A stretch of DNA of 63,967 nt from Terrimicrobiaceae bacterium (GCA_041749755.1 JBGTAT010000289.1:1-63967), one strand, 5' to 3'; numbered from the stretch's first letter, positions 30,797-50,805 are shown. Translations and numbers: made by a program. The notes: generated from the letters alone by a model not told the origin.

Positions 30797-32515
30797 ATGA
30801 GCCACCTCAGAAAACTCCTTCATATCCTGCTGCCTGAGCAGCGGAAAAAACTCCCGTTCATTTTTGGGCTCATGGTTGTTGCCATGTTGTTTGAAATGTT
30901 GGGTATCGGTTTGGTAATCCCATTGCTTGCCATATTGGTGCAGCCTGAGCTTTTGTACTCGAATCCCTGGGCAGCACCTCTGCTGAAGGTGATGGGGCAG
31001 CCCGACCAGCGAACAATGCTCCTCTACGGATTTGCCTTTATTGTTGTTCTCTTTTTTACAAAGTCTGCCTTTTTAACATTCCAGGCGGCTCAGCAAACAA
31101 AGTTTATTTTTTCAGTGCACCAGCAATTGTCGCAAAAACTCTTTTCCATCTATTTGCGACAGCCCTATTCCTTTCACCTGCAACGGAATTCAGCCCAGCT
31201 CATCAGAGGAATCACATCCGACACGTGGCTGTTCGCGACAAAATGCATCTCGCCGATTTTAATGTTGCTAACGGATGCCCTTGGCTTTGCCGGGATCATT
31301 ACGCTTCTTCTCATGGTAAATCCCATGGCGACCGTAACTGTTATTATATTGATCGGAGCTCTTACCGGCCTGTTTTTATCAAAAACCCGGAGCATGGTTT
31401 TGGCTTGGGGCAAGGCAAGACAGTACCACGATGGCCAGCGTATCCAGCACGTTCAGCAGGGCTTGAACGGCGTGAAAGAGGTTATGATCCTTGGTCGCCA
31501 AAACCAATTTATCGACCTGTTTTCAGAACACAGCATCCATTTGGAACGAGTAAGTCGAAATGAAATGTTGATGCAGCAATTGCCAAGGCTCTGGATAGAG
31601 TTTTTCGCAATACTCGGCGTCGCCGTCCTGGTTGCGATCATGGCCTCGCAGAGCTCTTCGGTGACAGATATTGTGCCAACGCTCGGACTTTTTGCCGCTG
31701 CCGCATTCCGCATGATGCCCTCGGTGAACCGGATGATCATGTCGCTGCAGGCGACACGTTTTGGCCTCCCCTCTGCCGATTTCTTGGAATCGGAACTGGC
31801 GATAGAGGCAAAACAAACGTCTCACGAAGGCGGCAGCTTGATCGGCGAGCTCAAAGGCAGCATCCAATTTGAATCGGTTGCCTTTTGCTACGAAAATGCA
31901 AGTCAACCGTCGCTGACCGAAGTGGATCTTATAATAAAGAAAGGCGAGACGGTTGGTTTCTCAGGCCCGAGCGGCTCAGGAAAAAGCACGCTCATTGACG
32001 TTCTTCTTGGCCTGCTTACACCTACAGAAGGGAGAGTTCTCGTGGACGGAACCGACATCTCCCGCAGCATGCGGGCATGGCAGAACCAAATCGGATACGT
32101 CCAGCAGAGCATCTACCTGACGGATGATACCTTGCGGCGTAATATTGCCTTCGGTTTGTCAGACGAGCAGATCGACGACAGCGCGATGTGGGGAGCCATT
32201 CGAGCGGCTCAGTTGGAGGAATTTATTCAGGGTCTGCCCGAAAAAATCGAGACCATCGTGGGCGAGAGGGGGGTGAGGCTCTCTGGAGGGCAGAGGCAAA
32301 GAATCGGGATTGCGCGAGCGCTCTACCACAACCCGAATGTCTTGGTCCTAGATGAGGCGACAAGCGCGCTTGACAATGCAACCGAGGCAGAGGTTATGAA
32401 TTCGGTGGATGCGCTTCATGGGAAAAAAACAATTATCATCATCGCCCATCGTATGAGTACACTCGGGGGTTGTGATCGCGTCTATCGTCTAGAGGACGGT
32501 CGAATCTCAAACTAA
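30797..32515 (+). CDS. fused TMD-NBD ABC exporter (MsbA/PglK-like)
   Basis: Six N-terminal TM segments. Walker A GPSGSGKST, LSGGQRQRIGIARAL and Walker B VLVLDEATSALD. Confidence 0.85.
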   Translation: MSHLRKLLHILLPEQRKKLPFIFGLMVVAMLFEMLGIGLVIPLLAILVQPELLYSNPWAAPLLKVMGQPDQRTMLLYGFAFIVVLFFTKSAFLTFQAAQQTKFIFSVHQQLSQKLFSIYLRQPYSFHLQRNSAQLIRGITSDTWLFATKCISPILMLLTDALGFAGIITLLLMVNPMATVTVIILIGALTGLFLSKTRSMVLAWGKARQYHDGQRIQHVQQGLNGVKEVMILGRQNQFIDLFSEHSIHLERVSRNEMLMQQLPRLWIEFFAILGVAVLVAIMASQSSSVTDIVPTLGLFAAAAFRMMPSVNRMIMSLQATRFGLPSADFLESELAIEAKQTSHEGGSLIGELKGSIQFESVAFCYENASQPSLTEVDLIIKKGETVGFSGPSGSGKSTLIDVLLGLLTPTEGRVLVDGTDISRSMRAWQNQIGYVQQSIYLTDDTLRRNIAFGLSDEQIDDSAMWGAIRAAQLEEFIQGLPEKIETIVGERGVRLSGGQRQRIGIARALYHNPNVLVLDEATSALDNATEAEVMNSVDALHGKKTIIIIAHRMSTLGGCDRVYRLEDGRISN

Positions 32516-32527
32516 AATATCAAAAGC

Positions 32528-33526
32528 ATGCTACAAAACAGTTCAATTCTCATTACTGGAGGAACCGGTTCATTTGGAAAAGTTTTTGTCCCGCTGACCC
32601 TCGAAAAGTACAATCCGAAGCGCCTCGTGATTTTTTCAAGGGATGAAATGAAGCAGTGGGAAATGGCCCAGAGCTACGGAAACGACCCCCGGGTCCGCTT
32701 TTTTATCGGGGACGTCCGCGACAAAGATCGCTTGGTGCGCGCATTGGATGGAATTGATTTTGTTGTCCACGCCGCCGCGACAAAAATTGTTCCCACGGCT
32801 GAATACAACCCCTTCGAGTGCGTGAAGACGAATATCAACGGGGCGATGAATGTCGTTGACGCCTGCATTGACCGGGGAATCCAGCGGGTTGTCGCCCTTT
32901 CGACCGACAAGGCCAGCAATCCAGTGAATCTGTACGGCGCAACAAAGCTTGCCTCGGACAAGCTTTTTGTTGCCTCCAACGCCTATGCCGGAACTCACAA
33001 CACGAGGTTCGCCGTCGTACGTTATGGCAATGTGATGGGATCGAGGGGATCGGTCATCCCATTTTTTCTCTCGAGGGCTCACAGCGGAATTCTGCCGATC
33101 ACGGATGCAAAAATGACGAGGTTTATGATTACCTTAGAGCAGGGGGTGGACCTGGTCTGGCGGGCATTTGAAGATATGAGCGGTGGCGAAATCTATGTGA
33201 AGAAGATTCCTTCCATGGGTATTCTGGACATCGCCAAGGCAGTCGCCCCTGATGCCCGGATGGAGTACATTGGAATTAGGCCAGGCGAAAAAATCCATGA
33301 GCAAATGATTGGCGTGGAGGATGCCGCTCATACATTCGAGTATGGGAGCTACTACAAAATTCTGCCTGCCATTTATGGCTGGTCAGCCGATGCGAGCCGC
33401 ATCGGAGATGGGGTGCCCGTTGCGCAGGACTTTGTTTATACGTCCGACAAAAATTCCGACTGGATGTCCACCGAGACGTTGAGACAATGGATTGAGACGA
33501 GGAAGCCGGACTTGTTGGCAACCTGA
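32528..33526 (+). CDS. pseB: UDP-N-acetylglucosamine 4,6-dehydratase (inverting)
   Basis: ILITGGTGSFGK...VIFSRDEMKQ...FFIGDVRD...AEYNPFECVKTNI...STDKA.NPVNLYGATKL...VRYGNVMGSRGSVIPFF. Near-colinear with Helicobacter FlaA1/PseB as I recall it. Confidence 0.88.
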   Translation: MLQNSSILITGGTGSFGKVFVPLTLEKYNPKRLVIFSRDEMKQWEMAQSYGNDPRVRFFIGDVRDKDRLVRALDGIDFVVHAAATKIVPTAEYNPFECVKTNINGAMNVVDACIDRGIQRVVALSTDKASNPVNLYGATKLASDKLFVASNAYAGTHNTRFAVVRYGNVMGSRGSVIPFFLSRAHSGILPITDAKMTRFMITLEQGVDLVWRAFEDMSGGEIYVKKIPSMGILDIAKAVAPDARMEYIGIRPGEKIHEQMIGVEDAAHTFEYGSYYKILPAIYGWSADASRIGDGVPVAQDFVYTSDKNSDWMSTETLRQWIETRKPDLLAT

Positions 33527-33533
33527 TCAAGTC

Positions 33534-34439
33534 TTGAAACAGCGCATACTCATTACAGGTGGCAGTGGACTGCTGGGGTTGATTTGGGCCCAGGAAACCC
33601 GGTCCGAGTTCGATGTATTCCTGGGTTTGCACATTCGGTCAGTCAAAATAGCTGGGACAACGTCGCTGCCAATTCGGTGGGAGGATTCCGGCGCACCAGG
33701 CATCGAACTCGATCGGTTATCCCCCAACCTTGTTGTCCATACAGCCGGCCTGACCAGCGTGGAGCGGTGCGAAACAGATCCCGAACAAGCAAAGGCTCTG
33801 AATACCGATCTGGCGGCCCGGGTTGCTGAGTATTGCGGGAAGAGAAAAATCGGCCTCATCCATATCTCCACCGATCATCTTTTTGATGGATCGGCCCCGC
33901 TTGTTCGGGAAGAACATCCGCTATGCCCGATGAACGTGTATGGTCAAACCAAAGCGGATGGGGAAGCTGCAGTGCTGCAGGCCTGCCCCGAGGCGCTGGT
34001 GGTGCGAACAAATTTTTACGGATGGGGTCCGCCGTACCGGCGCTCGTTCAGCGATTGGATTATCGATTCCTTGAAAGCTGGCCGGGAAATCGGAGTCTTC
34101 GAGGATGTTTTTTACACGCCAATCCTGGCGGCCAAGCTGGTTTCTTCTGCAATGGAGCTCTGGTCCAAGGGAGTTCATGGAGTCATCCATATTGCTGGTC
34201 CAGCGAGGATATCAAAACATGATTTTGCGGTCCGGGTGGCAGCCGAGTTTGATCTGGATCACCACCTGATCCGCCGAGCACAGTTGTCAAACTCCCCGCA
34301 GCTTGTTCGTCGTCCGTTCGACATGAGCCTGAGCAGCGAAAAAGCCTGGTCCATGCTTTCCTCGCAGCCCGACACTTTGGCCGAGCAAATCAAAACGCTG
34401 GCGCGCGAGCAGGAGTCTGGGCTGACATCAACTTTATAA
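33534..34439 (+). CDS. RmlD-family (dTDP-4-dehydrorhamnose reductase-like) sugar-nucleotide 4-reductase
   Basis: ILITGGSGLLG Rossmann and ISTDHLFDG...PMNVYGQTKADGE (YxxxK). Only TTG start candidates exist (33534 preferred, 33492 alternative). Confidence 0.75.
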   Translation: MKQRILITGGSGLLGLIWAQETRSEFDVFLGLHIRSVKIAGTTSLPIRWEDSGAPGIELDRLSPNLVVHTAGLTSVERCETDPEQAKALNTDLAARVAEYCGKRKIGLIHISTDHLFDGSAPLVREEHPLCPMNVYGQTKADGEAAVLQACPEALVVRTNFYGWGPPYRRSFSDWIIDSLKAGREIGVFEDVFYTPILAAKLVSSAMELWSKGVHGVIHIAGPARISKHDFAVRVAAEFDLDHHLIRRAQLSNSPQLVRRPFDMSLSSEKAWSMLSSQPDTLAEQIKTLAREQESGLTSTL

Positions 34440-34442
34440 AAT

Positions 34443-35618
34443 ATGATCCCCTATGGCCGCCATTCCATTGACGAATCAGACATCCAAGCCGTTGTGGATG
34501 TGCTGCGGAGCGGGTTTTTAACCCAAGGCCCGCACATTGATGCCTTTGAAAAGGCCGTTGCTGAATACACCGGGGCGAATTATGCCGTCGCTGTTTCGAG
34601 CGGGACGGCAGGGCTCCATCTTGCCGCCCTCGCCGCCGGAGTCGGTCCCGGCAAATCTCTGGTAACCTCCCCGATCACGTTCGTTGCCAGTGCGAATGCC
34701 GGAATCTATGCCGGAGGGAGCGTCCATTTTGCCGATATCGACCCGGAAACTATCAACATGTCACCGACATGCCTCCGGCAGGTTTTGGAGCGGGAGAAAA
34801 ACGTTCAAGCGGTCGTTCCGGTCCACTTTGCCGGCCTCCCCTGCGACATGACATCGATCCGGTCCATTGCGGATGAATTCGGAGCGATGGTCATCGAAGA
34901 CGCTGCACACGCCCTCGGAGCAACCTACGAGGACGGTTCTCGCGTGGGATGCTGCAGGCACTCAGCCATGACGGTTTTTTCTTTTCATCCGGTGAAGGCC
35001 ATCGCGGCCGGGGAGGGTGGCATGATTACCACCAACGATGAAACTCTCTACCGTAAGCTGCTTCGTCTTCGCAGCCACGGAATTAACAAGGCAGACGATT
35101 GCTTCGTTCTGGAACGGGAGGCTCTCGACGAGGACGGGATTCAAAATCCCTGGTATTACGAGATGCAGGAACTTGGCTTCCATTACCGCATCACTGATAT
35201 CCAATGCGGCCTCGCCCTCTCCCAGTTCAAACGGCTACCCTCATTTATCGCACGGCGACACGAGCTTGCTCTTCAGTACGATCAAGCCCTGGCAAATTGG
35301 AGTTGGCTCCGGCCGGCACAGACGGCTGGGCGTGCGCAAAGCGGCCACCATCTCTATGTGGTCAGGGTGGACTTCCAAAAGCTTGGAAAGACCCGGGGAG
35401 CTGTCATGCGGGAGCTCCGCACAAATGGCATCGTCTGCCAGGTCCACTACATTCCCGTCACCTCGCAACCATTTTACAAAAACCAAGGGTTTCTTTCTTC
35501 AGACTACCCCAACTCCCTGCGGTACTACACGGATGCTCTCAGCATTCCGCTGTACTACACTCTAACAGACAAGGAACAGGAATACATTGTCGAAGCGCTT
35601 CGAAATCTGAGGCAATGA
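34443..35618 (+). CDS. pseC: UDP-4-amino-4,6-dideoxy-N-acetyl-beta-L-altrosamine transaminase (DegT/DnrJ/EryC1 family)
   Basis: MIPYGRHSIDESDIQAVVDVLRSGFLTQGP... and the FSFHPVKAI PLP-Lys region. Confidence 0.85.
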   Translation: MIPYGRHSIDESDIQAVVDVLRSGFLTQGPHIDAFEKAVAEYTGANYAVAVSSGTAGLHLAALAAGVGPGKSLVTSPITFVASANAGIYAGGSVHFADIDPETINMSPTCLRQVLEREKNVQAVVPVHFAGLPCDMTSIRSIADEFGAMVIEDAAHALGATYEDGSRVGCCRHSAMTVFSFHPVKAIAAGEGGMITTNDETLYRKLLRLRSHGINKADDCFVLEREALDEDGIQNPWYYEMQELGFHYRITDIQCGLALSQFKRLPSFIARRHELALQYDQALANWSWLRPAQTAGRAQSGHHLYVVRVDFQKLGKTRGAVMRELRTNGIVCQVHYIPVTSQPFYKNQGFLSSDYPNSLRYYTDALSIPLYYTLTDKEQEYIVEALRNLRQ

Positions 35619-37237
35619 ATGGTGCAACCGCTATGGAAAAAAGCAAAGAAAGAGCAGGCGATCGTTCTGACCAAACCGAACGTTTTAACATGAATGCCAA
35701 ATCCATATTGTTCGCCCTAACTGCTACCTATGTGGTTGCTCTGTTGGGAAAGATGTGGGTTGGCAACACGGCATATTTCGACAACCTAACGTTGTCCCTG
35801 CTGCTGTGCTTGGCGTTGGTTCTCGTCATCTCGCTAAAAACAGCGACAAACAACATTTTTCCAATTATAGCCGGAACGCTTATATATTTCCTGGTATACA
35901 TTTTCCCGCGATCGTTGGAGTACCTCTATATGCCGGGAATGGTCGTTTTCCCACTGATCAGCAGTGCAGATGCTCCCCTAATAAACAGGGGGCTTCTTTA
36001 CTTTGTTGGAGGCACGGCATTTTTCCTTGCGGGAATTCATCTGGCTGGTTCCCTTTTTAAGGACCGACCGGCGCCTGTGCTGATGCCAGCAGAAGCCCGG
36101 CAGGCAGCCCTCCGCGATATCCTGCCCCTCTCGATTGTTTTTGTTTTATCCCTTTTGATAATGATTGTCGGTCAGAAACTCTCCGGAATTAGCGTCATCG
36201 GCCCTGCGGGCGAATCCAAGTATCACATTCTTGTGCAGGTCTCTCTGTTGCTATTTAGCATAGACACAGCATTAATATGTGTTGTCGCAGCCGGTGTTGC
36301 TGCCTGGAAATCACTCAACACGTGCCATTTTCTCTGTGTCGGATCGATTCTGGCGGGCTACCTGGCTGCAACAATGTATTTTGGATCTCGCGTTGGGCTC
36401 CTCCGAATTCTCCTGGCGGCAATCATGGCGTTCTTTGTGGTTTATCGAAACAAGAGCTTTGGCTTATCAAAAAAGATGGCTTTGACCACGCTGGGCGCAT
36501 GCCTATTTGTTGTTTGCATTGCTGTGTTTGGATTTCAAATAGGCTCTGCCTACAGAAACAGACTCGGACTCGAATCGTTGGAACGTCGCCTCGTCGCAGA
36601 GCCTCAAAACGCCATCGTTTTAGGAAGCAGAATTCAGCAAATGAAGGAAGACAAACTCAAGTTGAATAACGTAGCCGTTCTTTGCTCTTCGATATTAAAC
36701 CGCCTGAATACCGTGGACTTTGCCATTTTGACAAGTTCCCTGAACCGGAGCGGGCTGCCCCCCTCGATCTACGGCGACATTTCCTACGCTGCAAAAAGTA
36801 TTGCTAATAGCGTTCCCGGGACACCATTTCCCGAAGCAGACATAAATACGTCTCAGGTGCATGACATCGTGTACTCCGGAAGAGATGCCGGGGAGGTGAA
36901 AGCCGGAGGGTATTTTAGCCGGCCTTGGACAATCTGGGGCCTCGGGACACTCTTTACCTCAACCTGGTGGGGGTATTCCTCTTTCATGATCTTTGCGGGG
37001 TTTATGCTGCAGCTCTTCTATTGGGTCATTGGCAACCTTTCCGGGCATTATGCCCTATATGTCCAAACGGTTTATCTCTCTGTAGTCCTGCAATTAGTGT
37101 ATTTTTCCATGGGGGTAGATCACAGTGTCATTGTGGCCATTGGATGCGCCGCACAGACGGTTGTTATTATAGCATTTCTTGCAGGCGCTAAAAAACTTAT
37201 CTCATTCACCAAGCCAAGCCGCGAAGCCGTCGCTTAG
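35615..37237 (+). CDS. polytopic membrane protein, Wzy/O-antigen-ligase-like candidate
   Basis: About 9 TM segments, a soluble loop of about 110 aa, then 3-4 more TM segments. Lower GC than neighbours. Start at ATG 35615 (ATGA overlap with pseC) or ATG 35690. Confidence 0.5.
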   Translation: MNGATAMEKSKERAGDRSDQTERFNMNAKSILFALTATYVVALLGKMWVGNTAYFDNLTLSLLLCLALVLVISLKTATNNIFPIIAGTLIYFLVYIFPRSLEYLYMPGMVVFPLISSADAPLINRGLLYFVGGTAFFLAGIHLAGSLFKDRPAPVLMPAEARQAALRDILPLSIVFVLSLLIMIVGQKLSGISVIGPAGESKYHILVQVSLLLFSIDTALICVVAAGVAAWKSLNTCHFLCVGSILAGYLAATMYFGSRVGLLRILLAAIMAFFVVYRNKSFGLSKKMALTTLGACLFVVCIAVFGFQIGSAYRNRLGLESLERRLVAEPQNAIVLGSRIQQMKEDKLKLNNVAVLCSSILNRLNTVDFAILTSSLNRSGLPPSIYGDISYAAKSIANSVPGTPFPEADINTSQVHDIVYSGRDAGEVKAGGYFSRPWTIWGLGTLFTSTWWGYSSFMIFAGFMLQLFYWVIGNLSGHYALYVQTVYLSVVLQLVYFSMGVDHSVIVAIGCAAQTVVIIAFLAGAKKLISFTKPSREAVA

Positions 37238-37302
37238 CAGGCGGTTGCCTTTTCCGCCCGACCATGCCAGCAGACCTTGCAGGCAGCAAAAATCTCTTTC
37301 TC

Positions 37303-38196
37303 ATGCAGATTCCCTCGATTGAAAAAATTGCCCTTGGCACTGCACAGTTCGGAGGAGCATACGGCATCAACAACGGGTTTGGCATCCCGCCGGAAGTCCA
37401 GATTCACGGAATATTACGAAAAGCCATAGACGTTGGTATCCGGAGTTTTGACACTGCTGCCGCCTATGGAAACTGCGAACATTTGCTGGGAACGGTGGTG
37501 CAGAAGTTCGTCTCTCCCTCCGAAGTGCGTATCACGACGAAAGGGACAGTCCTTGGCGAGGGGATCGTTTCAACCGTTGAGGCTTCAATGAGCCGGCTCT
37601 GTGTGCCATGCCTTGATTCGTGGTTACTCCACTGCGAAGGAGAGCTGGACAGCTGGGACTCAAAAACATGGGCAGGGGCAAGAAAGCTCACAGAGAGCGG
37701 CAAAGTCCGCTCATTTGGAGTGTCCGCTTACCAGCCAGCCGCAGCGGTGCGGGGCCTTAAAGAAATTGGCTTGGAGACAGTCCAGTTTCCTGGCAGTCCC
37801 ATGGATAGGCGATTTTTCAGGCATCAGGAGCTCTCCGAACTTCTGCGCAATGGCAAGCAGGCGACCGTTCGAAGCATTTACCTCCAGGGTCTCTGTCTCG
37901 TGTCGCAAGATGCCAAGATCGACCACATTCCCTACGCAAGGGAAGCCGTGACAAAACTAGACGGGTTCTGCCGCGCCCATGGTCTTCAGCGGGATGCGTT
38001 CTGTCTGCAGTATGTGTTATGCCGAATTCAAGGCCTGAATGCAAACATCGTGGTGGGGCTTGAAACCATCGACCAATTGGAGCGCAATATTTCCATTTTA
38101 CAGAGCGCTCCACTGCCGGTGGAAATCTGCGATGAATGGGACGCCGTTTGGCCGGACGACCATGAAACGCTTGTCCTGCCCTACCTTTGGAAATGA
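37303..38196 (+). CDS. aldo/keto reductase
   Basis: IALGTAQFGGAYG...SFDTAAAYGNCEHLLG AKR N-terminal pattern. Start at ATG 37303 or 37264. Confidence 0.8.
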   Translation: MQIPSIEKIALGTAQFGGAYGINNGFGIPPEVQIHGILRKAIDVGIRSFDTAAAYGNCEHLLGTVVQKFVSPSEVRITTKGTVLGEGIVSTVEASMSRLCVPCLDSWLLHCEGELDSWDSKTWAGARKLTESGKVRSFGVSAYQPAAAVRGLKEIGLETVQFPGSPMDRRFFRHQELSELLRNGKQATVRSIYLQGLCLVSQDAKIDHIPYAREAVTKLDGFCRAHGLQRDAFCLQYVLCRIQGLNANIVVGLETIDQLERNISILQSAPLPVEICDEWDAVWPDDHETLVLPYLWK

Positions 38197-38295
38197 TTAA
38201 ACCTCCGGGGGCTGCAACGCGGCGATGCACACAAGAACGATCTGGCGGGTTGGAAGTAAGCTTAAGAATAGCAAGTACATTTAAAAGGATAAGAT

Positions 38296-39345
38296 ATGCA
38301 AACAATTCAGATTGGAACTAAGACAATTGGGGATGGCCTTGAACCACTCATGTTCGCTGAGGAGGGCCAAGCGAACCAAGGTGATGCCAAGCTCGCAATG
38401 GCGATGTGCGAAAGGGCGGCCGAGGCGGGGGCCGACGGGATCGAATTTCAGTTTTTTCTAGCAGATGACATGTACATCTCGACTGATCCCGGCCATGCCA
38501 TCTACAAATCGCGTGAATTGTCCTGCAGTGCGATTCGAGAGATTATCGAGTGCGCACACTCCCACGGCCTCCTGCTCCAGGTCGCCGGACTCTCACCCTC
38601 TCTGATTCAGTTTTGTGCGGATGCCGGAGCCGATTCGTTTTGTGTGAATGCGACGGATTTGACGAATCCAGAAATTCTGGATGCGGTCGCACATCTCGGA
38701 CTTCCGTTCTGGCTAGCAACCCTCATGGGTACGATGGAGGAGATAACTTGGTCCATCGACTACTTGCGCACGAAAACGAGCAGGGCATTCGGCCTTCTCC
38801 ATGGGCAACATGTCATGTCAACAGATGCCACCCAAGGAGTGCCTCCTGCCCTACTTCAGTTGGATTGTATATCTTCAATGAAGGAACGTTTTGATCTCGT
38901 TACCGGATTTGTGGACCACACAATAACGCTCTACGTCCCGGCCTTGGCAGCGGCCAAGGGAGCTGCCATCGTTATGAAGCACCTTGCGCCCGAAAAGAAT
39001 TGGAGGGGGCCCGACTGGGTTGTCTGCCTCGACCCGGACGACTGGAAAAAGTCGCGTGATATGCTCAGGGACAGTTTTGCCTCCGGGGGCGATTCCAAAG
39101 AGCTATCAATTGCAGAATTCAAAGACAGAACGCTTCACAGGCGGAGTCTCTATTCGCGCCGAGAATTGAAAGCCGGCACCGTCATAACCAGAGGCGATCT
39201 GGTCGCTCTCCGCCCAGGGCAGGGTGGCATAGACCCCAGATTTCTCGATTCTTATGCCGGTCGCACGGTTCTAAATGACCTCGGAAAGCATCAACAAATA
39301 CAAGCCGCTGATTTTTGCGGTCCTTCTGAAGGGAGAAATACATGA
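38296..39345 (+). CDS. divergent NeuB/SpsE-like sialic-acid-synthase family protein with SAF domain
   Basis: TIM-barrel region plus C-terminal SAF (ITRGDLVALRPGQGGIDP). The N-terminal motif reads FAEEGQANQGD...GIEFQ where the PseI in this window has IAEMSGNHNQS...AIKVQ. Confidence 0.7.
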   Translation: MQTIQIGTKTIGDGLEPLMFAEEGQANQGDAKLAMAMCERAAEAGADGIEFQFFLADDMYISTDPGHAIYKSRELSCSAIREIIECAHSHGLLLQVAGLSPSLIQFCADAGADSFCVNATDLTNPEILDAVAHLGLPFWLATLMGTMEEITWSIDYLRTKTSRAFGLLHGQHVMSTDATQGVPPALLQLDCISSMKERFDLVTGFVDHTITLYVPALAAAKGAAIVMKHLAPEKNWRGPDWVVCLDPDDWKKSRDMLRDSFASGGDSKELSIAEFKDRTLHRRSLYSRRELKAGTVITRGDLVALRPGQGGIDPRFLDSYAGRTVLNDLGKHQQIQAADFCGPSEGRNT

Positions 39346-40133
39346 ACCTCGGGCTAAAAAATAAAGTCGCTGTCGTCCTCGCCTCCGGTGCGGGAATCGG
39401 TCGCGGGATAGCTGCCGTCCTTGCCAAGGAAGGTTGCCAACTTGCCATTTGCTCCCGCAACGAAGCTCACATTTCATCGCTGGGTAAAGAAATCGCACTC
39501 AGCAGCGGGGTAAATGTTGTTGCCAAGCAGGCGGATGTTTCCGATCCGGCGTCACTGGACGGCTTTTTCGATGCTGTTTTTGATGCCTACGGGAAGGTTG
39601 ACATTCTAGTCAACAACTCCGGCGGTCCACCTGCAGGGAAATGCATGGAGCTGAGCGATGAACAATACCAGCAGGCCTTTCAGTTGGTCTTGATGAGTAA
39701 GATCCGGGCTTGCAAGCGAGTCATCCCAGTGATGAAGAAGCAGGGATGGGGGCGCATCATCAATGTCGAGAGCACCAGCGTCAAGAGCCCTCTAGAGAAT
39801 ATGGTTTTGTCGAACACGTTTCGGTCCGCTGCAACCGCATTCGCAAAAACCCTCTCACTGGAGCATGCGCGGGATGGGATCAGGATTCATACGATCCTTT
39901 CAGGCCCGTTTCTCACCAACCGCGTGAATGAGCTAGGAAATGCCGCGGCCTCGCAGAAGGGAATTTCTTTTGAGCAATGGAAATCGGAAGCGATAGCCGG
40001 AAATCCTCTGGGCCGATTCGGTGACCCGCTGGAGTTCGGAGCATTGGTTGCATTTCTGGCGAGCGATCTGGCTGATTTCATGAATGGCACCTGCATAGCC
40101 ATTGATGGAGGAGCGCTTAAAACGACAACATGA
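39342..40133 (+). CDS. SDR family oxidoreductase
   Basis: VVLASGAGIGRGIA Rossmann. ATGA overlap with the upstream gene. Confidence 0.85.
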   Translation: MNLGLKNKVAVVLASGAGIGRGIAAVLAKEGCQLAICSRNEAHISSLGKEIALSSGVNVVAKQADVSDPASLDGFFDAVFDAYGKVDILVNNSGGPPAGKCMELSDEQYQQAFQLVLMSKIRACKRVIPVMKKQGWGRIINVESTSVKSPLENMVLSNTFRSAATAFAKTLSLEHARDGIRIHTILSGPFLTNRVNELGNAAASQKGISFEQWKSEAIAGNPLGRFGDPLEFGALVAFLASDLADFMNGTCIAIDGGALKTTT

Positions 40134-40218
40134 AGCAGATCTCCAAATTAGCAATTTAACACAAAAGACCCCCTATCAACACAGGGGCTGTGTCCCTTCT
40201 TACTAAATTGTAACAATA

Positions 40219-42246
40219 ATGAAAGTAGTTGCACTCATTCAAGCTCGCATGGGATCTAAAAGATTTCCAAACAAAGTTATGCGTCCGATATGCGGGGTCC
40301 CTATGATTGAGCACCTTCTGAATCGTCTTTCGAAAGCGCAAAAAATTGATCAAATAGTATTAGCAACCTCCAGCACAAAAAATAATGAAGTATTAGTGCA
40401 ATATGTTAAAAGCCTTGGCTATGAGGTTTTTCAAGGTAGCGAAGATGACGTGCTAGATCGCTTCTATAATGCCTCAATGATCTATAGTCCAGATGCTGTC
40501 GTGCGCATCACGGGCGACTGTCCGCTGATCGATCCAGCCGTTGTGGACGACGTCGTACGCGCCTTCCAAAACGAGGGGAAGGACTATGTTAGTAATGTGG
40601 AGCCGCCGACATTTCCCGACGGCCTAGACTGCGAGGTCTTTTCGTTTCGTTCGCTCCAGCAGGCCGCCGAGGAGGCTGTCGAGCCTGCACACCGCGAGCA
40701 TGTAACCCCATATCTGCGCGAATCCGGGAAATTTTCCCGTTCGAATGTAGTCGCAGAAATCGACGGGTCCCAGGAACGCTGGACGGTTGACGAGCCCAAG
40801 GACCTCGAGGTCGTTGCTGCCATCTTCGAACACTTTGCCCCGCGCACCGACTTTGGCTGGCGGGAAATTATGGCGTTAAAAGAAACAAACCCAGAGCTTT
40901 TTCAGGCTAACGCCGGGATCCTGCGCAACGAGGGGGCCGCGATCGGAGCGGGCCAAAAGCTTTGGAAGCGGGCGAAGCGGGTTATTCCGGGCGGCAACAT
41001 GCTGCTCTCGAAGCGGGCGGAGATGTTTTTGCCCGACCAGTGGCCGGCCTACTTCAGCAGGGCGAAGGGCTGCAAGGTCTGGGACCTTGACGGCCGGGAA
41101 TTTATCGACATGTCGATCATGGGGATCGGCACCAACATCCTCGGCTACGGGCATCCGGAAGTTGACGCGGCCGTGATGCAGACGGTCCAGGCCGGGAACA
41201 TGTCCACGCTGAACTGCCCGGAGGAAGTTTACCTCGCCGAGAGGCTGGTCGAGCTCCACCCGTGGGCCGACATGGTCCGGTTTGCGCGGTCCGGCGGCGA
41301 GGCCAATGCGATCGCCATCCGCATCGCCCGCGCCGCGTCGGGCAAGGACAAGGTGGCGGTCTGCGGGTACCACGGCTGGCACGACTGGTACCTCTCAGCA
41401 AACCTCGGGGACGATAAAAGCCTGGACGGCCACCTCCTGCCCGGACTCGAACCAAACGGGGTCCCCCGCAGCCTTCGCGGGACGGTTTTCCCGTTCACGT
41501 ACAACAATTTTCCGGAGGTGCAGGAGCTGGTCGAAAGAGAGGACATCGGGGTCATTAAGATGGAGGTCATGCGCAACAAAGGCCCCGAGGACAACTTTTT
41601 GCATAAAGTCCGCCAGCTGGCGACCGACCGCGGGATCGTTCTCATTTTTGACGAATGCACGTCCGGCTTCCGCCAGACATTCGGCGGCCTGCATAAGCTC
41701 TACGGTGTCGAACCGGACATGGCGATGTTTGGCAAGGCACTCGGCAATGGCTATGCGATCACGGCGACGATCGGCAGGCGGGCGGTGATGGAGGCGGCGC
41801 AATCGACGTTTATCAGCAGCACGTTTTGGACCGAGCGCATCGGGCCGACAGCAGCCCTCAAAACCCTCGAGGTCATGGAGCGGGAAAAATCCTGGGAATT
41901 CATTTCACAAACCGGCCTGGGAATTCGTAAACGGTGGCAGGAACTTGCAGACAAACACGGCCTCCATATCGAGCACTGGGGCCTCCCGGCGCTGACTGGA
42001 TTTTCTTTCGAAAGCCCCAACGCCCTGGCTTATAAAACCCTGATCTCCCAGGAGATGCTGGCAAAGGGGTATCTGGCAGGGAACAGTGTGTACGTCTGTA
42101 CCGACCACACGTCCGAAGTGCTTGACTCCTACTTCGATGCGCTCGATCCAATTTTTGCACTCATTCGTGAATGCGAAGACGGCCGTGATGTGATGGGCCT
42201 GCTCCATGGCCCCGTATGCCATGGAGGGTTCACGAGGCTGAATTAA
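40219..42246 (+). CDS. fusion protein: SpsF-like cytidylyltransferase (CTP_transf_3) + class III (glutamate-1-semialdehyde aminomutase-like) aminotransferase
   Basis: N-terminal ALIQARMGSKRFPNKVM. From about aa 250, GGNMLLSKRAEMF...GCKVWDLDGREFIDM...GYGHPEVDAAV...FDECTSGFR...FGKALGNGY (PLP Lys region). Confidence 0.8.
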   Translation: MKVVALIQARMGSKRFPNKVMRPICGVPMIEHLLNRLSKAQKIDQIVLATSSTKNNEVLVQYVKSLGYEVFQGSEDDVLDRFYNASMIYSPDAVVRITGDCPLIDPAVVDDVVRAFQNEGKDYVSNVEPPTFPDGLDCEVFSFRSLQQAAEEAVEPAHREHVTPYLRESGKFSRSNVVAEIDGSQERWTVDEPKDLEVVAAIFEHFAPRTDFGWREIMALKETNPELFQANAGILRNEGAAIGAGQKLWKRAKRVIPGGNMLLSKRAEMFLPDQWPAYFSRAKGCKVWDLDGREFIDMSIMGIGTNILGYGHPEVDAAVMQTVQAGNMSTLNCPEEVYLAERLVELHPWADMVRFARSGGEANAIAIRIARAASGKDKVAVCGYHGWHDWYLSANLGDDKSLDGHLLPGLEPNGVPRSLRGTVFPFTYNNFPEVQELVEREDIGVIKMEVMRNKGPEDNFLHKVRQLATDRGIVLIFDECTSGFRQTFGGLHKLYGVEPDMAMFGKALGNGYAITATIGRRAVMEAAQSTFISSTFWTERIGPTAALKTLEVMEREKSWEFISQTGLGIRKRWQELADKHGLHIEHWGLPALTGFSFESPNALAYKTLISQEMLAKGYLAGNSVYVCTDHTSEVLDSYFDALDPIFALIRECEDGRDVMGLLHGPVCHGGFTRLN

Positions 42247-43769
42247 TGTCCACCCTGCACGTCGCTTTCCGGCTGGATGTTAATCGGCAGATTGGCACCG
42301 GCCACCTCATGCGCTGCCTGACATTGGCTGACGAGCTTAAGCGGCGTGGAGGGATGACCCGTTTCGTGAGCCGGGGAATCCCCAAGCATTTCTGTGAAAT
42401 GTTAGCATCTCACGGGCATGAAGTCAGCGAACTAGGTGGCGATCCAGACGCAGTACCGGACGGGACTTTGGTCGTTGTGCCCACCCCTCCTTGCAGCCAG
42501 CATGAAGACGCGTGCGATACCATTGCCGCGCTTGCCGACAAAAAATGGGATTGGCTCATCGTCGACCATTATGCGCTTGATGTCGTGTGGGAGAATTCCC
42601 TGCGGGGTTCCGCAAAGAAAATTCTGGCTATCGACGATCTGGCCGACCGCACGCACGATTGCGATGTGCTTCTGGACCAAAACTTTTACTGGGATCCAGC
42701 GGCCCGGTATGCCGGGAAAGTTCCCAAAGCCTGTCGGATGCTTCTCGGGCCGAGGTTCGCTCTCCTGCGCGAGGAATTCTGCCAGCGCCGTCCGCTCGTT
42801 CGCCCGCGATCCGCAAACCTGGGAAGGATTCTGATTTTCTTTGGAGGCGTGGATTCCGAAAATCTGACGTCCCAATCCATGGATGCAGTTGCGGGGGCGG
42901 CAGAGCGTGGCATTCGCATCGATGTCGTGGTGGGAATTCTCCATCCGTTCAGGAGGCAAATTGAAGAAGCCTGTCAAGCGCGAGGATTCCGATGCCACGT
43001 TCAGACCGAAAACATTTCGGAATTGATGGCTGAAGCCGATCTTTGCATCGGGGCTGGTGGCACTGCTGTCTGGGAGCGCTGCTGCTTGGGATTGCCGACC
43101 CTTTCGATCTGCACGGCACCGAACCAGGAACGGCAAATCGCCGACGCCTCGTCGGCGGGGCTCCTCTATACAGCCGTTTCCGATGAGGATCTTCCTACAT
43201 ATTTGCCGCGGCATCTCGCTGCGTTCTGCGAAAATCCGGGGGGAAGGCAGGATATCTCGCGCCGGGCGATGGAGATGGTCGACGGTCGCGGGTCCCTTCG
43301 AGTCGCCCAAGCGCTAGGGTTCCATAACATCAGCATTCGTGAGGCCTGCATGGACGATTCAGAGAAACTTTACTCCTGGCGCAACCATCCTTCGATCCGG
43401 AGCACTGCGAGGCACCAGCGACCGATCCCTCGCCAGGAACACGACAATTGGCTGGGGGAGGTTTTGGCGGATACCAGCCGCATGCTTTTGATTGGAGAGC
43501 GCCTTGGAGAGCCCTTGGGAGTCGTTCGATTTGACTGCGGCGGGAAGGAGGCGGCAGAAGTCTCCATCTACTTGGTGCCTGGTTGTACGGAAGTGGGGCT
43601 GGGAGGAGATTTGCTACTCGCTGCCGAACAATGGATGCAATTCAATGCTCCCGAAACGAGAAGGTTCCGGGCTCAGGTGCTGGGGCAAAACACGCGCTCG
43701 GAGAAGATGTTTCTGGGGCAGGGGTATAACATCGCGAGCACGTGGTTCGAAAAATGTGTGAAGGAATAA
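42246..43769 (+). CDS. pseG/pseH: fusion protein: PseG (UDP-2,4-diacetamido-2,4,6-trideoxy-beta-L-altropyranose hydrolase) + PseH-type GNAT N-acetyltransferase
   Basis: N-terminal VAFRLDVNRQIGTGHLMRCLTLADEL (PseG signature). C-terminal DSEKLYSWRNHPSIRS...EHDNWL (PseH signature). Confidence 0.82.
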   Translation: MSTLHVAFRLDVNRQIGTGHLMRCLTLADELKRRGGMTRFVSRGIPKHFCEMLASHGHEVSELGGDPDAVPDGTLVVVPTPPCSQHEDACDTIAALADKKWDWLIVDHYALDVVWENSLRGSAKKILAIDDLADRTHDCDVLLDQNFYWDPAARYAGKVPKACRMLLGPRFALLREEFCQRRPLVRPRSANLGRILIFFGGVDSENLTSQSMDAVAGAAERGIRIDVVVGILHPFRRQIEEACQARGFRCHVQTENISELMAEADLCIGAGGTAVWERCCLGLPTLSICTAPNQERQIADASSAGLLYTAVSDEDLPTYLPRHLAAFCENPGGRQDISRRAMEMVDGRGSLRVAQALGFHNISIREACMDDSEKLYSWRNHPSIRSTARHQRPIPRQEHDNWLGEVLADTSRMLLIGERLGEPLGVVRFDCGGKEAAEVSIYLVPGCTEVGLGGDLLLAAEQWMQFNAPETRRFRAQVLGQNTRSEKMFLGQGYNIASTWFEKCVKE

Positions 43770-44839
43770 ACATCGGCAGCCAAAAAGTCGGTCTAGGGCA
43801 CTCCCCGTTCATCATCGCGGAGATGTCCGGCAACCACAACCAATCGCTTGAGCGGGCGTTGGAGATCGTCGAGGCCGCAGCGGAGGCGGGCGCGCACGCG
43901 ATCAAGGTCCAGACGTACACGGCCGACACGATGACGATCGACCTCGACGAGCGTGAGTTCCGCATCTCCGATCCCGGCAGCCTCTGGGCGGGAGAGTCGC
44001 TCTACAACCTTTACAAGAAGGCCTACACGCCGTGGGAGTGGCACAAGCCGATTTTTGAACGGGCGCGCGCGCTGGGGATCATCCCGTTCAGCTCCCCGTT
44101 CGACGAGACCGCCGTGGCATTCCTGGAGGAGCTCGAGGCTCCGTGCTACAAGATCGCCTCCTTTGAAAATACCGACCTGCCGCTGATCCGGTGTGCGGCG
44201 GCCACCGGGAAGCCCCTCATCATCTCGACGGGGATGGCAAGCATGGCCGAACTGGAGGAGACCGTTGGCGCTGCGCGCGATGCCGGCTGCAAGGATTTGG
44301 TCCTGCTCAAGTGTACCAGCACTTATCCTGCGGAGCCGACGACCACAAATTTGAGGACGATCCCGGATTTGAGGGACATTTTTGGCTGCGAGGTCGGGGT
44401 CTCCGACCACACGATGGGGATCGGGGTTTCTGTCGCGGCCGTTGCACTCGGGGCGACGGTGGTTGAAAAACATTTTACGCTGAGCCGGGCTGACGGGGGC
44501 GTGGACAGCACCTTTTCGATGGAGCCCGCCGAGCTCCGGCAACTTGTCTCAGAGACCAAACGTGCCTGGCAAGCGCTTGGGGGCGTCAGCTACGGGCCAA
44601 CCGAAGGAGAAAAGAAGTCTCTTCAATTCCGGCGTTCGCTGTACGTGGTGGAAGACCTGGAGCCTGGCGACATCTTCACAAAAGAAAACTTGCGGGCGAT
44701 TCGCCCCGGCCTCGGCCTACCACCAAAGTATTTCGATTCGTTTCTTGGAGGCCGCGTGGAAAGGGGAGTAAAGAGAGGTACTCCGTTGAGCTGGGATCAT
44801 ATTGCTCCTGATCAAATCAGGTCACCGAAACCACTATAG
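43754..44839 (+). CDS. pseI: pseudaminic acid synthase
   Basis: FIIAEMSGNHNQSLERALEIVEAAAEAGAHAIKVQTY, plus a C-terminal SAF domain. Start at ATG 43754 (GTG 43742 alternative). Confidence 0.88.
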   Translation: MCEGINIGSQKVGLGHSPFIIAEMSGNHNQSLERALEIVEAAAEAGAHAIKVQTYTADTMTIDLDEREFRISDPGSLWAGESLYNLYKKAYTPWEWHKPIFERARALGIIPFSSPFDETAVAFLEELEAPCYKIASFENTDLPLIRCAAATGKPLIISTGMASMAELEETVGAARDAGCKDLVLLKCTSTYPAEPTTTNLRTIPDLRDIFGCEVGVSDHTMGIGVSVAAVALGATVVEKHFTLSRADGGVDSTFSMEPAELRQLVSETKRAWQALGGVSYGPTEGEKKSLQFRRSLYVVEDLEPGDIFTKENLRAIRPGLGLPPKYFDSFLGGRVERGVKRGTPLSWDHIAPDQIRSPKPL

Positions 44840-45351
44840 TGTTAACAATTTTTACTGAGCGGTTTTTTCTGAGAGAGCTTGTTCCAGAAGATGCGAATGA
44901 AACGTACCTGGGTTGGCTGAATGACAGCGCGATCCAACGGTTTATCACGTCAGCCAATAAAACTCACACACAGGCAGAGCTATCCGCCTACGTGTGCTCG
45001 CGCTTAAACAGAGATGATGTTTTGTTCTTGGGAATTTTTGAAAAGCAATCCGGAAAACATATCGGCAACATCAAATTTGAACCGATTGATACAATCGAGA
45101 GCTATGCGGTTCTGGGAATGCTTATCGGCGATGCAAATTGGCGCGGAAAGGGAGTGGCCAGCGAGGTTATTGATGCGAGCCTCAATACAATTTGTCTGCA
45201 GAGAGGAATTAAAGAAATTATTCTGGGCGTGGAGCTGGACAATAAGCCTGCCATCCGCGCCTATGAGAAAGCAGGATTTCAGATTGAGCCGACAGAGAAA
45301 GTTTCAGTAGATCCGGTGAATGCCATAACCATGATCAAAAAATTCCGGTAA
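44839..45351 (+). CDS. GNAT family N-acetyltransferase
   Basis: FLRELVPEDANETYLGWLND...WRGKGVASEVI...AIRAYEKAGF. The GTG start shares 1 nt with the pseI stop. Confidence 0.8.
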   Translation: MLTIFTERFFLRELVPEDANETYLGWLNDSAIQRFITSANKTHTQAELSAYVCSRLNRDDVLFLGIFEKQSGKHIGNIKFEPIDTIESYAVLGMLIGDANWRGKGVASEVIDASLNTICLQRGIKEIILGVELDNKPAIRAYEKAGFQIEPTEKVSVDPVNAITMIKKFR

Positions 45352-45352
45352 C

Positions 45353-46996
45353 GTGAAGCTGGCCCCGCATTTTTTATTGCCCCACTCAGTCCTGCGTTCC
45401 CGCCTGCGACGAATCATGCGCGGGTACCGCTATCTCAGAAGCACGGGAAGTCTGGGAAAGATAGTGGAAGTTAAGAGTTCTTTGACAACTCAGCCGCTCA
45501 AAGCCCAAGGGAATCCGTCGACATTTGGGCATGAGGCTATTGATTGCTCCAAAGAGAAAATCGTGCGCCAGTATCTCTTGCTCCGCATTGGAGGAGTCAA
45601 CCTGAACCGCGCCTTGTTGTTTTCGCTGGGAAAAAAGGGTGGGACAGTTGCATTTCCGCTGCCGAGAGAGTGGAGGGAGGTCATTGCAAGCCACGGCTTC
45701 AGGGTCGACAACAAGAAGTGCGCCATTCTTTGGTGGGGCTACATCTGTGCACTCTTCCTGTATGGCGTCGCCCAATACATCAAAATTGCTTCGAGCGGAC
45801 TATTTTCGATTTTCAAAGGTTGCCCGGAACCTCGAAGGCACGCCTACTTTGAAAATCTCGGCCTTGAGAACCTTCCGAAGGCTAGCCGAGAGACGGATAG
45901 GGAAAATCTATTTTCATGGTATCTTCATCTGCGGGGGGAACCCGCCGAATTGGATGAAATCCGCCACGGGGTATCGAAGGCAGAACAGGTGTTGGTAGAT
46001 GGGGTTTCGGTGCTGCCCCAACAGGGCCCGTTCCCTTCGAAATGGAGCTTCCATCAGCTTGCCGCATACTGCACTCGTGGCTTCGTTGCGATCTCCGCAG
46101 CAGCCTTCGAGATATTACGAGGCGAGTGGTGGGAAGCTTTGCTCCTCAATCAATCGGCGCTTTTGACGCTGGTGGATGTTTTGCCGAAACACTACCTGGC
46201 TAAGGAATATCTTTTTCACAATTCCACGTGGATGTATCGTCCGCTCTGGACATATGAAGCGGCGCGGCAGGGGGCAAAAATCATCTTTTATTTTTACTCA
46301 ACCAACAGTCAGGGATTTAAGACATCCGCCGGTTACCCCATTTTGAATTATGGGTGGGAAAGCATGACTTGGCCGAACTACCTTGTTTGGGATGAGTATC
46401 AGGCAGACTTTGTCAGGCGTGCGGTTGGTGCATCGGCAAACATTCAAATTGTTGGCCCAATCCCCTTTCAATGCAGTCCCCATCAAATGCCCGAAGTCCA
46501 TGCGGGAGCCGTTGCCATTTTTGACGTTACCCCTCACCGTGATTCTCATTATCAAACTCTCGGGCAGGAAATGGAGTTTTACACGCCGGATGTTTCTCTG
46601 CCCTTCTTGCAGGATATCTGCGACGCTGCAGAAAAGCGCAGGGTAACAATTCTCTGGAAACGCAAACGGAACGTGGGACGGATGGCGCATCCGCGGTATC
46701 GCCACCTGGGGGATCGGCTCGCAGCTAAAAATCATGTCACGATTTTAGATCCGCAAACGTCGGCGGCACAGGTCATAGAGAGGTGTGCGGCCGTCATCTC
46801 GATGCCCTATACCTCAACGGCACTGATTGCCAGGGAACTTGGAAAGCCCACTGCTTACTACGACCCTCTTTCCAGCTTGCAGCGAGATGATCGTGCGGCC
46901 CACGGAATCAAGATTATTCAAGGTCGCCAGGAGTTGGCGAAATGGATGGAAGAGCATTTAAGCTCAGCGAATACCTCAGACCTCATCCATGCTTAA
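45353..46996 (+). CDS. uncharacterised polysaccharide-biosynthesis protein; C-terminal half GT-B-like, motif MPYTSTAL reminiscent of the 'PFTS motif' family
   Basis: 547 aa. No catalytic motif securely recognised. The family assignment is from memory of a named family and was not verified. Start uncertain (GTG 45353 or ATG 45416). Confidence 0.4.
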   Translation: MKLAPHFLLPHSVLRSRLRRIMRGYRYLRSTGSLGKIVEVKSSLTTQPLKAQGNPSTFGHEAIDCSKEKIVRQYLLLRIGGVNLNRALLFSLGKKGGTVAFPLPREWREVIASHGFRVDNKKCAILWWGYICALFLYGVAQYIKIASSGLFSIFKGCPEPRRHAYFENLGLENLPKASRETDRENLFSWYLHLRGEPAELDEIRHGVSKAEQVLVDGVSVLPQQGPFPSKWSFHQLAAYCTRGFVAISAAAFEILRGEWWEALLLNQSALLTLVDVLPKHYLAKEYLFHNSTWMYRPLWTYEAARQGAKIIFYFYSTNSQGFKTSAGYPILNYGWESMTWPNYLVWDEYQADFVRRAVGASANIQIVGPIPFQCSPHQMPEVHAGAVAIFDVTPHRDSHYQTLGQEMEFYTPDVSLPFLQDICDAAEKRRVTILWKRKRNVGRMAHPRYRHLGDRLAAKNHVTILDPQTSAAQVIERCAAVISMPYTSTALIARELGKPTAYYDPLSSLQRDDRAAHGIKIIQGRQELAKWMEEHLSSANTSDLIHA

Positions 46997-50045: not shown

Positions 50046-50801
50046 ATGAATTCCAAACCCTGCATCATTATCACCGGAGGCACCCGTGGGATCGGAGCTC
50101 AAATTTCCCGGACGTTCCACGAACAAGGATTCCGGGTCGCCATCGTCGGCAGGAAGGATTCCGGCCTCGCTTCGGATCTGGGTCCGGATGCGAGATTTTG
50201 GGCGACAGACGTCTGCGATGTGGAGCAGGTCGCGCGCATGTGCTCCGAGGTGAACGAGTGGGCAGGCCGGATCGACGGCTTGGTCAACAACGCCGGCATG
50301 TCGGCATGGCGTCCTCTGGAAGCGATCGATGAGGGCTTTTGGCAGGACATGCTGGACACCAACCTCAAGAGCGTTCTCTTCTGCACGCAAAAGGTTGTGC
50401 CCCACCTTTCCGCCGGCGGTTGTGTGATTAATATTTCGAGCCTGGCTGGAAAGCGGGGCAGCGCGAACAATGCGGCCTATTGCGCGGCAAAGTTTGGTGT
50501 CAACGGGATCACGCAAGCGCTGGCCAAAGAGCTCGGTCCCCGGGGCATACGGGTCAATGCAGTCTGCCCGGTTTACATTGAAACAGAGGGGCTGCGCGAG
50601 GCGCTGGCGCAGCCAGAGGCCCCGCCGGCCGGCAAAAATGTCGACGAATACCTGAGGGAATTTGCGGCATCAAATTCCGCCCTGAGAAGGCTTCCGCTGG
50701 CCGAAGAAGTGGCAAAAACCTGCGTTTTTCTTGCATCGGCAGCTGCCTCGGCTATCACCGGTCAGTGCATCAACGTCGATTGTGGAGTTCTCCCCCAGTA
50801 G
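50046..50801 (+). CDS. SDR family oxidoreductase (FabG-like)
   Basis: IIITGGTRGIGAQ, NISSLAG and YCAAKFG. Confidence 0.85.
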   Translation: MNSKPCIIITGGTRGIGAQISRTFHEQGFRVAIVGRKDSGLASDLGPDARFWATDVCDVEQVARMCSEVNEWAGRIDGLVNNAGMSAWRPLEAIDEGFWQDMLDTNLKSVLFCTQKVVPHLSAGGCVINISSLAGKRGSANNAAYCAAKFGVNGITQALAKELGPRGIRVNAVCPVYIETEGLREALAQPEAPPAGKNVDEYLREFAASNSALRRLPLAEEVAKTCVFLASAAASAITGQCINVDCGVLPQ

Positions 50802-50805
50802 GGCC

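Follow-up and report, generated by a model that had tools for sequence, protein, structure and literature searches.

Organization of the locus

We analysed a 63,967-nucleotide stretch of DNA (hereafter the window) from a Terrimicrobiaceae bacterium (GCA_041749755.1, JBGTAT010000289.1:1-63967), in which a cassette of four genes lies inside a locus for pseudaminic acid (Pse). Open reading frame (ORF) calls and Pfam searches reveal, in this order on the plus strand and all in one operon, an aldo/keto reductase (AKR), a NeuB-like protein (NBL), an SDR-fold protein and a fusion of a cytidylyltransferase domain (CT) to a class-III aminotransferase domain (AT3). This confirms the make-up of the module as given in a preliminary description of the same DNA, which began it at 37303; the AKR start is called at 37264, with 37303 an internal methionine. 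The fusion proves ordinary in its distribution, and NBL with its Tyr-less SDR neighbour is a conserved, rare and genuinely unexplained enzyme pair.

Genes of the operon overlap or lie no more than about 100 bases apart, and the cassette is enclosed by pseC upstream and by pseG and pseI downstream (Table 1). NBL is likewise nested in 15 loci, drawn from Pseudomonadota, Thermodesulfobacteriota, Lentisphaerota, Chloroflexota, Verrucomicrobiota and Bacteroidota. The preliminary description saw here a second sialic-acid-synthase-like module. Because the genes are nested in the Pse locus, and because the CT domain most likely serves that locus, a separate module is not upheld; we lean towards regarding the four genes as a tailoring and activation cassette within the Pse locus, not as an independent pathway.

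Table 1. Genes and domains of the cassette, followed by the neighbouring genes (window coordinates)
Feature	Coordinates	Strand	Evidence
AKR (aldo/keto reductase)	37264-38196	+	PF00248 Aldo_ket_red, 7.6e-28; alternative start 37303
NBL (NeuB-like, TIM barrel + SAF)	38296-39345	+	Pfam NeuB 5e-30, SAF 9e-07
SDR-fold protein	39342-40133	+	adh_short_C2, 1.1e-46, 159.8 bits; 4-base overlap with NBL stop
CTP_transf_3::Aminotran_3 fusion	40219-42246	+	CTP_transf_3 residues 4-172, Aminotran_3 residues 276-602
CT domain of fusion, SpsF-type	40219-40950	+	PF02348, 2.1e-34
AT3 domain of fusion, class III, GSA-aminomutase-like	40951-42246	+	PF00202, 4e-39, 134.9 bits
PglK-like ABC exporter	30797-32515	+	Pfam/NCBIfam
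PseB	32528-33526	+	TIGR03589, 524 bits
RmlD-like reductase	33492-34439	+	rmlD model, 147 bits, under cut-off
PseC	34443-35618	+	DegT Pfam, 354 bits
Protein between pseC and AKR	35627-37237	+	no Pfam or NCBIfam matches
PseG::PseH fusion	42216-43769	+	TIGR03590 PseG, 287 bits; PseH, 52.8 bits
PseI	43742-44839	+	TIGR03586, 505 bits
GNAT	44839-45351	+	
PFTS-motif protein	45353-46996	+	TIGR04417, 342 bits
KdsB-like cytidylyltransferase, neighbouring cassette	50731-51567		

Fold and active site of the NeuB-like protein

The TIM-barrel plus SAF layout first noted for NBL holds by Pfam (NeuB domain at residues 37-266, SAF domain at 282-340), by an AlphaFold model (pLDDT 86.9) and by Foldseek, whose top matches to that model are PseI 8H2C and NeuB 2WQP (E 2e-25). 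HMMER aligns the protein end to end with Neisseria meningitidis NeuB (PDB code 1XUU, E 1.6e-21), and from this alignment and the confident model we take the fold to be intact. NBL nevertheless scores under the equivalog cut-offs for both NeuB (TIGR03569, 151.8 versus 399.65 bits) and PseI (TIGR03586, 123.7 versus 340.25 bits), and an ESM Atlas search with it returned generic NeuB/SAF clusters only.

Residue numbers in this section are those of 1XUU unless stated, the numbering of PMC11339185 being two lower. In NeuB, Lys53 and Lys129 hold the carboxylate of phosphoenolpyruvate (PEP), and Ser132, Ser154, Ser213 and Asn184 hold its phosphate; Gln55, Tyr186, Asp247 and Arg314 contact the sugar, and His215 and His236 ligate the metal (PMC11339185; a residue list is given in PMC6795526 too). 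The preliminary description had quoted AEEGQANQGD and GIEFQ from NBL against AEMSGNHNQS and AIKVQ from the PseI of the window, and had concluded from a by-eye register that the Asn-His pair and the Lys of the K-x-Q motif, given there as a PEP contact, are replaced. The motifs are exact, that Lys is the carboxylate-binding Lys53, and the register is upheld by the alignment to 1XUU and by a 32-sequence MAFFT alignment (25 NBL from six phyla, 5 full-length canonical PseI, a NeuB-domain protein from locus L014 and a poorly aligned PseI-like ORF from L019). In both, Lys53 of the window protein becomes Glu and Asn29-His30 becomes Ala-Asn. Further substitutions are K129C, S132A, E134D, S154A, N184H, Y186M, S213V and E234M, such that six of the six PEP contacts of NeuB are replaced.

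These changes recur across the family. All 25 NBL sequences carry Ile26 to Glu, Asn29 to Ala, Lys53 to Glu, Gly131-Ser132 to Asn-Ala, Glu134 to Asp, Thr183-Asn184 to Gln-His, Tyr186 to Met, Ser213 to Val or Ile, and Glu234 to a non-acid; position 129 is never basic (Cys, Val, Asn or Thr), and position 154 is Ala or Ser. Ser132, Ser154 and Ser213 are all serine in the five canonical PseI and in the L014 NeuB-domain protein. Retained in 25 of 25 are Glu25, Gln55, Asp214-His215, Lys235-His236, Asp247 and Arg314, with the two metal histidines, H208 and H229 in NBL numbering, among them. Overall, 18 of the 25 mapped pocket positions are invariant despite identities that fall to 31%. In a tree of 142 rows, the 15 NBL rows group in a clade of 100% support whose stem measures 1.91 changes per site; the 98 PseI rows form a clade of their own.

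As judged from these alignments, the PEP site of NBL is lost. Since every PEP contact has gone, we conclude that NBL cannot be a PEP-dependent synthase, and its annotation by current pipelines as a sialic acid or legionaminate synthase is almost certainly wrong. NBL is a neofunctionalised NeuB/PseI paralogue under strong selection, not a decaying copy. The altered active site first described for this protein therefore stands, as a family signature.

The SDR-fold protein that follows NBL keeps the nucleotide-binding glycines G18 and G20 in all 11 sequences of its type, and S144, S157 and R161 are invariant in the same set. We take Ser157 and Arg161 to occupy the positions of the catalytic Tyr and Lys, the register having been set by eye against Escherichia coli FabG.

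Distribution and insertion of the NBL-SDR pair

NBL is much rarer than the fusion: it was found in 15 genome loci, and its proteins fall into 229 clusters at 90% identity, with about 13 representatives at the 50% level. Of the 13 related loci with DNA beyond NBL, 10 have, as the window does, the same type of SDR directly after it, and most NBL loci have an oxidoreductase (GFO or AKR) before or after the pair. Pse genes surround the pair in every locus with enough recovered flank, and a canonical NeuB-family synthase is also present in every NBL locus whose DNA extends far enough.

Among 40 relatives searched, 16 of them from the same genus as the window, NBL was not found; the fusion or its aminotransferase is present in 4 of the 16. 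Three same-genus loci with the fusion (L179-L181) read PseB-PseC-AKR-CT::AT3-PseG-(PseH)-PseI, with an empty gap between AKR and CT and no NBL or SDR, and one of the three has an upstream glycosyltransferase 80% identical to that of the window. What separates AKR from CT in the window is a mobile insertion of two genes, NBL and the Tyr-less SDR, and a rare one. The window itself looks mosaic: its PseC, NBL and SDR are akin to those of the Denitromonas-type locus (63-73% identity), and against the same-genus copies its AT3 domain is 82-86% identical but its CT domain just 59-68%. GC content is 36-40% at 40200-40500, the first 300 bases of the fusion gene and the 5' part of CT, versus 54-66% on either side, and a recombination junction near this position is possible.

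AKR::NBL fusions that bear the NBL signature occur in the representative proteins P0248 and P0251, and a Vibrio fusion of an SpsF-like CT to an AKR has been proposed as a substitute for NeuA/PseF (PMC7371886). Together with CT::AT3, these link AKR, NBL, CT and AT3 pairwise by gene fusion.

Other genes occupy the same slot elsewhere, and the gap between AKR and AT3 looks like an insertion hot spot for tailoring genes. In Rhodoferax sp. TS-BS-61-7 (L032:5382-9000) it holds an HD-domain protein, an SDR of the same Tyr-less type and an APH-like kinase; this Pse locus has no NBL or CT between AKR and AT3, and a PseF-type CT follows PseI. A third divergent kind of NeuB/SAF protein lies in the AKR-CT slot of a Desulfotalea metagenome-assembled genome (MAG; L044:7211-8218) and of L158 (near 7219). 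This variant, also seen in P0257, keeps Lys53 and Lys129 and has Ser132, Ser154, Asn184 and Ser213 changed. P0257 (963 aa) fuses a canonical NeuB barrel, the variant NeuB and a cytidylyltransferase; it was considered as a Rosetta stone for NBL and rejected, as the domain in its middle is of the different variant, with both lysines retained. The NBL locus of a Dehalococcoidia MAG (L014:11322-13826) carries a transaldolase/FSA-like gene and a split transketolase beside a sulfotransferase and an ATP-grasp ligase.

Two observations concern neighbouring or related genes. The RmlD-like reductase between pseB and pseC is found also in L004, L006, L011, L012, L032 and L044 and is missing from the same-genus loci L180 and L181. 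The genome of the window has a third NeuB-family gene on contig C405 (15078-15779, minus strand, PF03102 258.5 bits, in a 399-aa open frame), which suggests another nonulosonate pathway elsewhere in the genome.

The AKR and AT3 pair

The preliminary description called a class-III aminotransferase fused to the nucleotide-activating enzyme unusual for nonulosonate pathways. As a claim of rarity this is wrong, because the fusion and the equivalent pair of genes are widespread in Pse loci. With the 675-aa fusion as protein query, 8000 of 8000 scored candidates were significant, and the best 120 matches are nearly all 675 aa long, with both domains and 73-88% identity. A genome scan with an alignment of the aminotransferase located at least 598 loci, and context was counted in 100 of these that have at least 6 kb on both sides of the gene. 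PseB or PseC together with PseI accompany it in 86, an AKR in 85 (a GFO-type oxidoreductase instead in 6) and an SpsF-type cytidylyltransferase in 89; CT is directly upstream of AT3 in 87, in the same reading frame in 27 (in a separate count, 35 of the first 80 loci had both in one frame). The usual order is PseB-PseC-(GNAT)-AKR-CT-AT3-PseG-(PseH)-PseI, and the hosts are Pseudomonadota, Bacteroidota, Cyanobacteriota, Verrucomicrobiota, candidate phyla, Chlamydiota and a Methanoregula. Checked for co-occurrence, AKR-CT-AT3 is recurrent in Pse loci and NBL-SDR is a rare addition.

AKR with a class-III aminotransferase is a very widespread accessory pair of Pse loci. The two flank the cytidylyltransferase in the Aeromonas group I flagellin glycosylation islands (PMC7874193) and are present in the Legionella pneumophila Sg6/Sg12 lipopolysaccharide locus (PMC3694923). 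The catalytic tetrad of AKR (D63, Y68, K93 and H123) is invariant in 13 homologues from Pse loci. In AT3, the pyridoxal phosphate (PLP) lysine within FGKALGNGY and a GFR motif are invariant. AT3 scores under the HemL cut-offs (TIGR00713, 186.4 versus 527.3; PRK06209, 240.1 versus 486), and its nearest solved structures are glutamate-1-semialdehyde (GSA) aminomutases, an aminopentol aminotransferase and the C-6' sugar aminotransferase 7LLD (121 bits). A literature search found no paper characterising AKR, AT3 or NBL.

In six further loci (L053-L058; for example, Devosia riboflavina and Flavimaricola marinus), aminotransferases 66-72% identical to the window AT3 are flanked by ABC-transporter genes, without Pse genes, and so the AT3 family is not confined to Pse loci. 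An 8-amino Pse-like sugar is known in Tenacibaculum maritimum (PMC3210612), and a search of Flavobacteriaceae for AT3 gave no Tenacibaculum record among the best 80 of 191 matches. An extra GNAT was considered as acylase of a third amine; this is weakened, the GNAT after PseC in most loci probably being PseH.

A candidate CMP-pseudaminic acid synthetase

The CT domain scores 34.3 bits on the PseF model TIGR03584 (cut-off 205.7), over residues 4-68 only. Its best solved relative is the uncharacterised PDB entry 6OEW (125 bits), for which our literature search found no citing paper. The genome of the window (86% complete) holds three CTP_transf_3 genes, namely KdsB on another contig, the KdsB-like gene of the neighbouring cassette and the fusion, and no PseF among them. 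In the NBL loci L004, L006 and L012 (hosts Denitromonas, an Oxalobacteraceae genome and a Desulfobacterales MAG) the CT slot is taken by a separate PseF-type protein, with 201-220 bits on TIGR03584. Of 39 loci that have the core Pse genes, the SpsF type alone is present in 36, the PseF type alone in two and both types in one. Three complete genomes that carry the fusion (Njordibacter, Synechococcus MIT S9452 and Polaribacter) gave no PseF-like match above 44 bits.

There are precedents for activation by other cytidylyltransferases. Bacillus subtilis spsF mutants make legionaminic acid but lose its transfer (PMC7439481), and FlmC, a non-PseF cytidylyltransferase that may or may not be akin to the window CT, completes the Caulobacter Pse pathway rebuilt in E. 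coli (PMC7591256). Since the slot is interchangeable with PseF and complete fusion-bearing genomes have no other PseF, the CT domain is very probably the CMP-Pse synthetase of its locus, a predicted SpsF-type, non-orthologous replacement of PseF.

Proposed pathway and alternatives

The pathway outlined here starts from what was observed: the nesting, the displacement pattern of PseF and CT, the loss of the PEP contacts, the conservation of the pocket and the gene fusions. PseB, PseC, PseH, PseG and PseI would make Pse. AKR (or GFO) and AT3 would perform ketone/alcohol redox chemistry and transamination on a Pse-lineage sugar around the activation step, a tentative though reasonable assignment made by analogy with the oxidoreductase/aminotransferase pairs of amino-sugar pathways. 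NBL would bind the same acetamido sugar with the half of the pocket that it has kept, and the new Glu and His residues may now serve as ligands of its metal. Its chemistry, as far as the pocket residues tell, is most likely a step that needs a metal but no PEP (an aldol or retro-aldol reaction, an isomerisation or an epimerisation), with a hexose or a nonulosonate as substrate, and presumably coupled to AKR and SDR. The CT domain would make the CMP derivative, and the pathway would end in a Pse derivative activated with CMP, for use by the O-antigen or capsule machinery that the neighbouring genes encode. A bolder version we consider quite unlikely: in it, NBL, with AKR and the Tyr-less SDR as partners, has a new activity on nonulosonic acids, independent of PEP, dependent on a metal and derived from the NeuB scaffold, that forms, breaks or rearranges C-C bonds. 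It would give a CMP-ulosonic acid with a modified skeleton (extended, branched or epimerised), similar to those that mass spectrometry has begun to reveal and that have no genes assigned to them.

Several points weigh against this pathway. AKRs usually reduce and seldom oxidise, and loci with only AKR, CT and AT3 offer no obvious source of a keto sugar for these enzymes. The redox role of the SDR is uncertain, since its canonical Tyr and Lys appear replaced. The KdsB-like enzyme at 50731-51567 could in principle activate Pse, and we found no assay in the literature for any enzyme of the cassette. Plain CMP-Pse5Ac7Ac is what Candidatus Accumulibacter produces (bioRxiv 10.64898/2026.04.20.719630); should its locus be of this type, the final sugar may bear no trace of the AKR/AT3 pair.

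NBL could alternatively still be a condensing synthase, one whose donor, held on the metal, carries no phosphate (pyruvate, oxaloacetate or some other 2-oxo acid) and which, with AKR, SDR and AT3, builds a second and distinct ulosonic acid, possibly of longer or branched chain, for activation by CT. Its fold, metal histidines, Glu25, Gln55, Asp247 and Arg314 are retained, and new invariant residues at the PEP and phosphate sites (Glu26, Glu53 and His184) could bind metal or a 2-oxo acid; moreover, CMP-linked higher-carbon ulosonic acids without assigned genes do exist, having been reported in Magnetospirillum (bioRxiv 10.64898/2026.04.20.719630). We nonetheless judge such a synthase unlikely, given the canonical NeuB-family enzyme in every NBL locus with enough DNA and a single cytidylyltransferase in the cassette of most loci. 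The two donor-carboxylate lysines also have no basic replacement, and Glu134 and Glu234 are changed too.

The preliminary description suggested that NBL may be non-catalytic, and the idea can be widened to the SDR, the two becoming enzyme-derived sugar-binding, scaffolding or regulatory subunits; NBL has, after all, lost six substrate contacts and two catalytic glutamates, and the SDR its catalytic Tyr and Lys. Subunits without catalysis would scarcely be expected to keep 18 of 25 pocket positions invariant at identities down to 31%, or both metal histidines, with replacements that are polar and the same everywhere (Glu, Glu, Asn, Asp and Gln-His), and the SDR keeps its nucleotide-binding glycines with invariant Ser144, Ser157 and Arg161, so that we regard this account as very unlikely. 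We give as little credence to a cassette that makes something other than a sugar, an amino- or hydroxy-acyl group for instance, to be joined later to Pse as a substituent, with the sugar skeleton unaltered. Natural Pse bears many N-acyl groups, genes for ATP-grasp, methyltransferase and metallophosphoesterase proteins are frequent in related loci, and the solved aminotransferases nearest to AT3 include enzymes acting on beta-keto-acyl and amino-acid substrates. Yet Arg314 and the SAF domain, both of which bind the acetamido sugar, are retained in NBL; an ATP-grasp ligase is missing from the window, and the CT fusions indicate chemistry at the level of the sugar. A CMP-activated Pse derivative tailored by the cassette remains our preferred reading.

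Pseudaminic acids decorate the flagella, capsules and O-antigens of many bacteria and shape phage and immune recognition. A very large share of Pse loci outside model organisms have no PseF and instead have an AKR, an SpsF-type CT and a class-III aminotransferase; where "Pse5Ac7Ac" is predicted for such loci from the genome, the prediction may be wrong or incomplete. At least one conserved paralogue without a PEP site, paired with a Tyr-less SDR, has arisen from the NeuB fold, a clean case of neofunctionalisation.

Comparison with known systems

NBL shares with NeuB, PseI and LegI (PDB codes 1XUZ, 2WQP and 8H2C) the TIM barrel with its SAF/AFP-like domain, the metal ligands and residence in a nonulosonate locus. 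It differs from them in the absence of the PEP contacts that they possess and in forming a separate, long-stemmed clade below the equivalog cut-offs, and, wherever the DNA extends far enough, it stands beside a canonical synthase and not as its substitute. The CT domain belongs to the same CTP_transf_3 fold family as PseF and B. subtilis SpsF and carries an N-terminal ARMGSKRFPNK motif. It holds the position in the Pse locus that PseF takes elsewhere and is the only candidate activator in complete genomes; unlike PseF, it reaches just 34 bits on the PseF model and is fused to a class-III aminotransferase, and its likeness to SpsF is one of fold family.

For AKR (or GFO) and AT3, the parallels are WbpB (GFO-type) with WbpE, and the aminoglycoside dehydrogenase with its class-III C-6' aminotransferase (7LLD), each an NAD(P) oxidoreductase paired with a PLP aminotransferase. 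The known nonulosonate pathways rely on enzymes of DegT type that act on NDP-hexoses, in contrast to the class-III AT3 here, and no product of AKR/AT3 loci is known to carry an extra amino group. That either an AKR or a GFO can fill the oxidoreductase role is reminiscent of the deoxysugar 3-ketoreductases, which likewise come in two families.

In gene order, as described, the cassette resembles the Aeromonas group I islands, which read pseB-pseC-AKR-pseF-class III aminotransferase-pseG-pseI, with no NBL or SDR described (PMC7874193). In A. hydrophila AH-1 the flagellin glycan is a Pse derivative of 403 Da with an unresolved structure (PMC4691044). The context of the islands is flagellar, whereas the cassette of the window lies among genes for O-antigen or capsule export.

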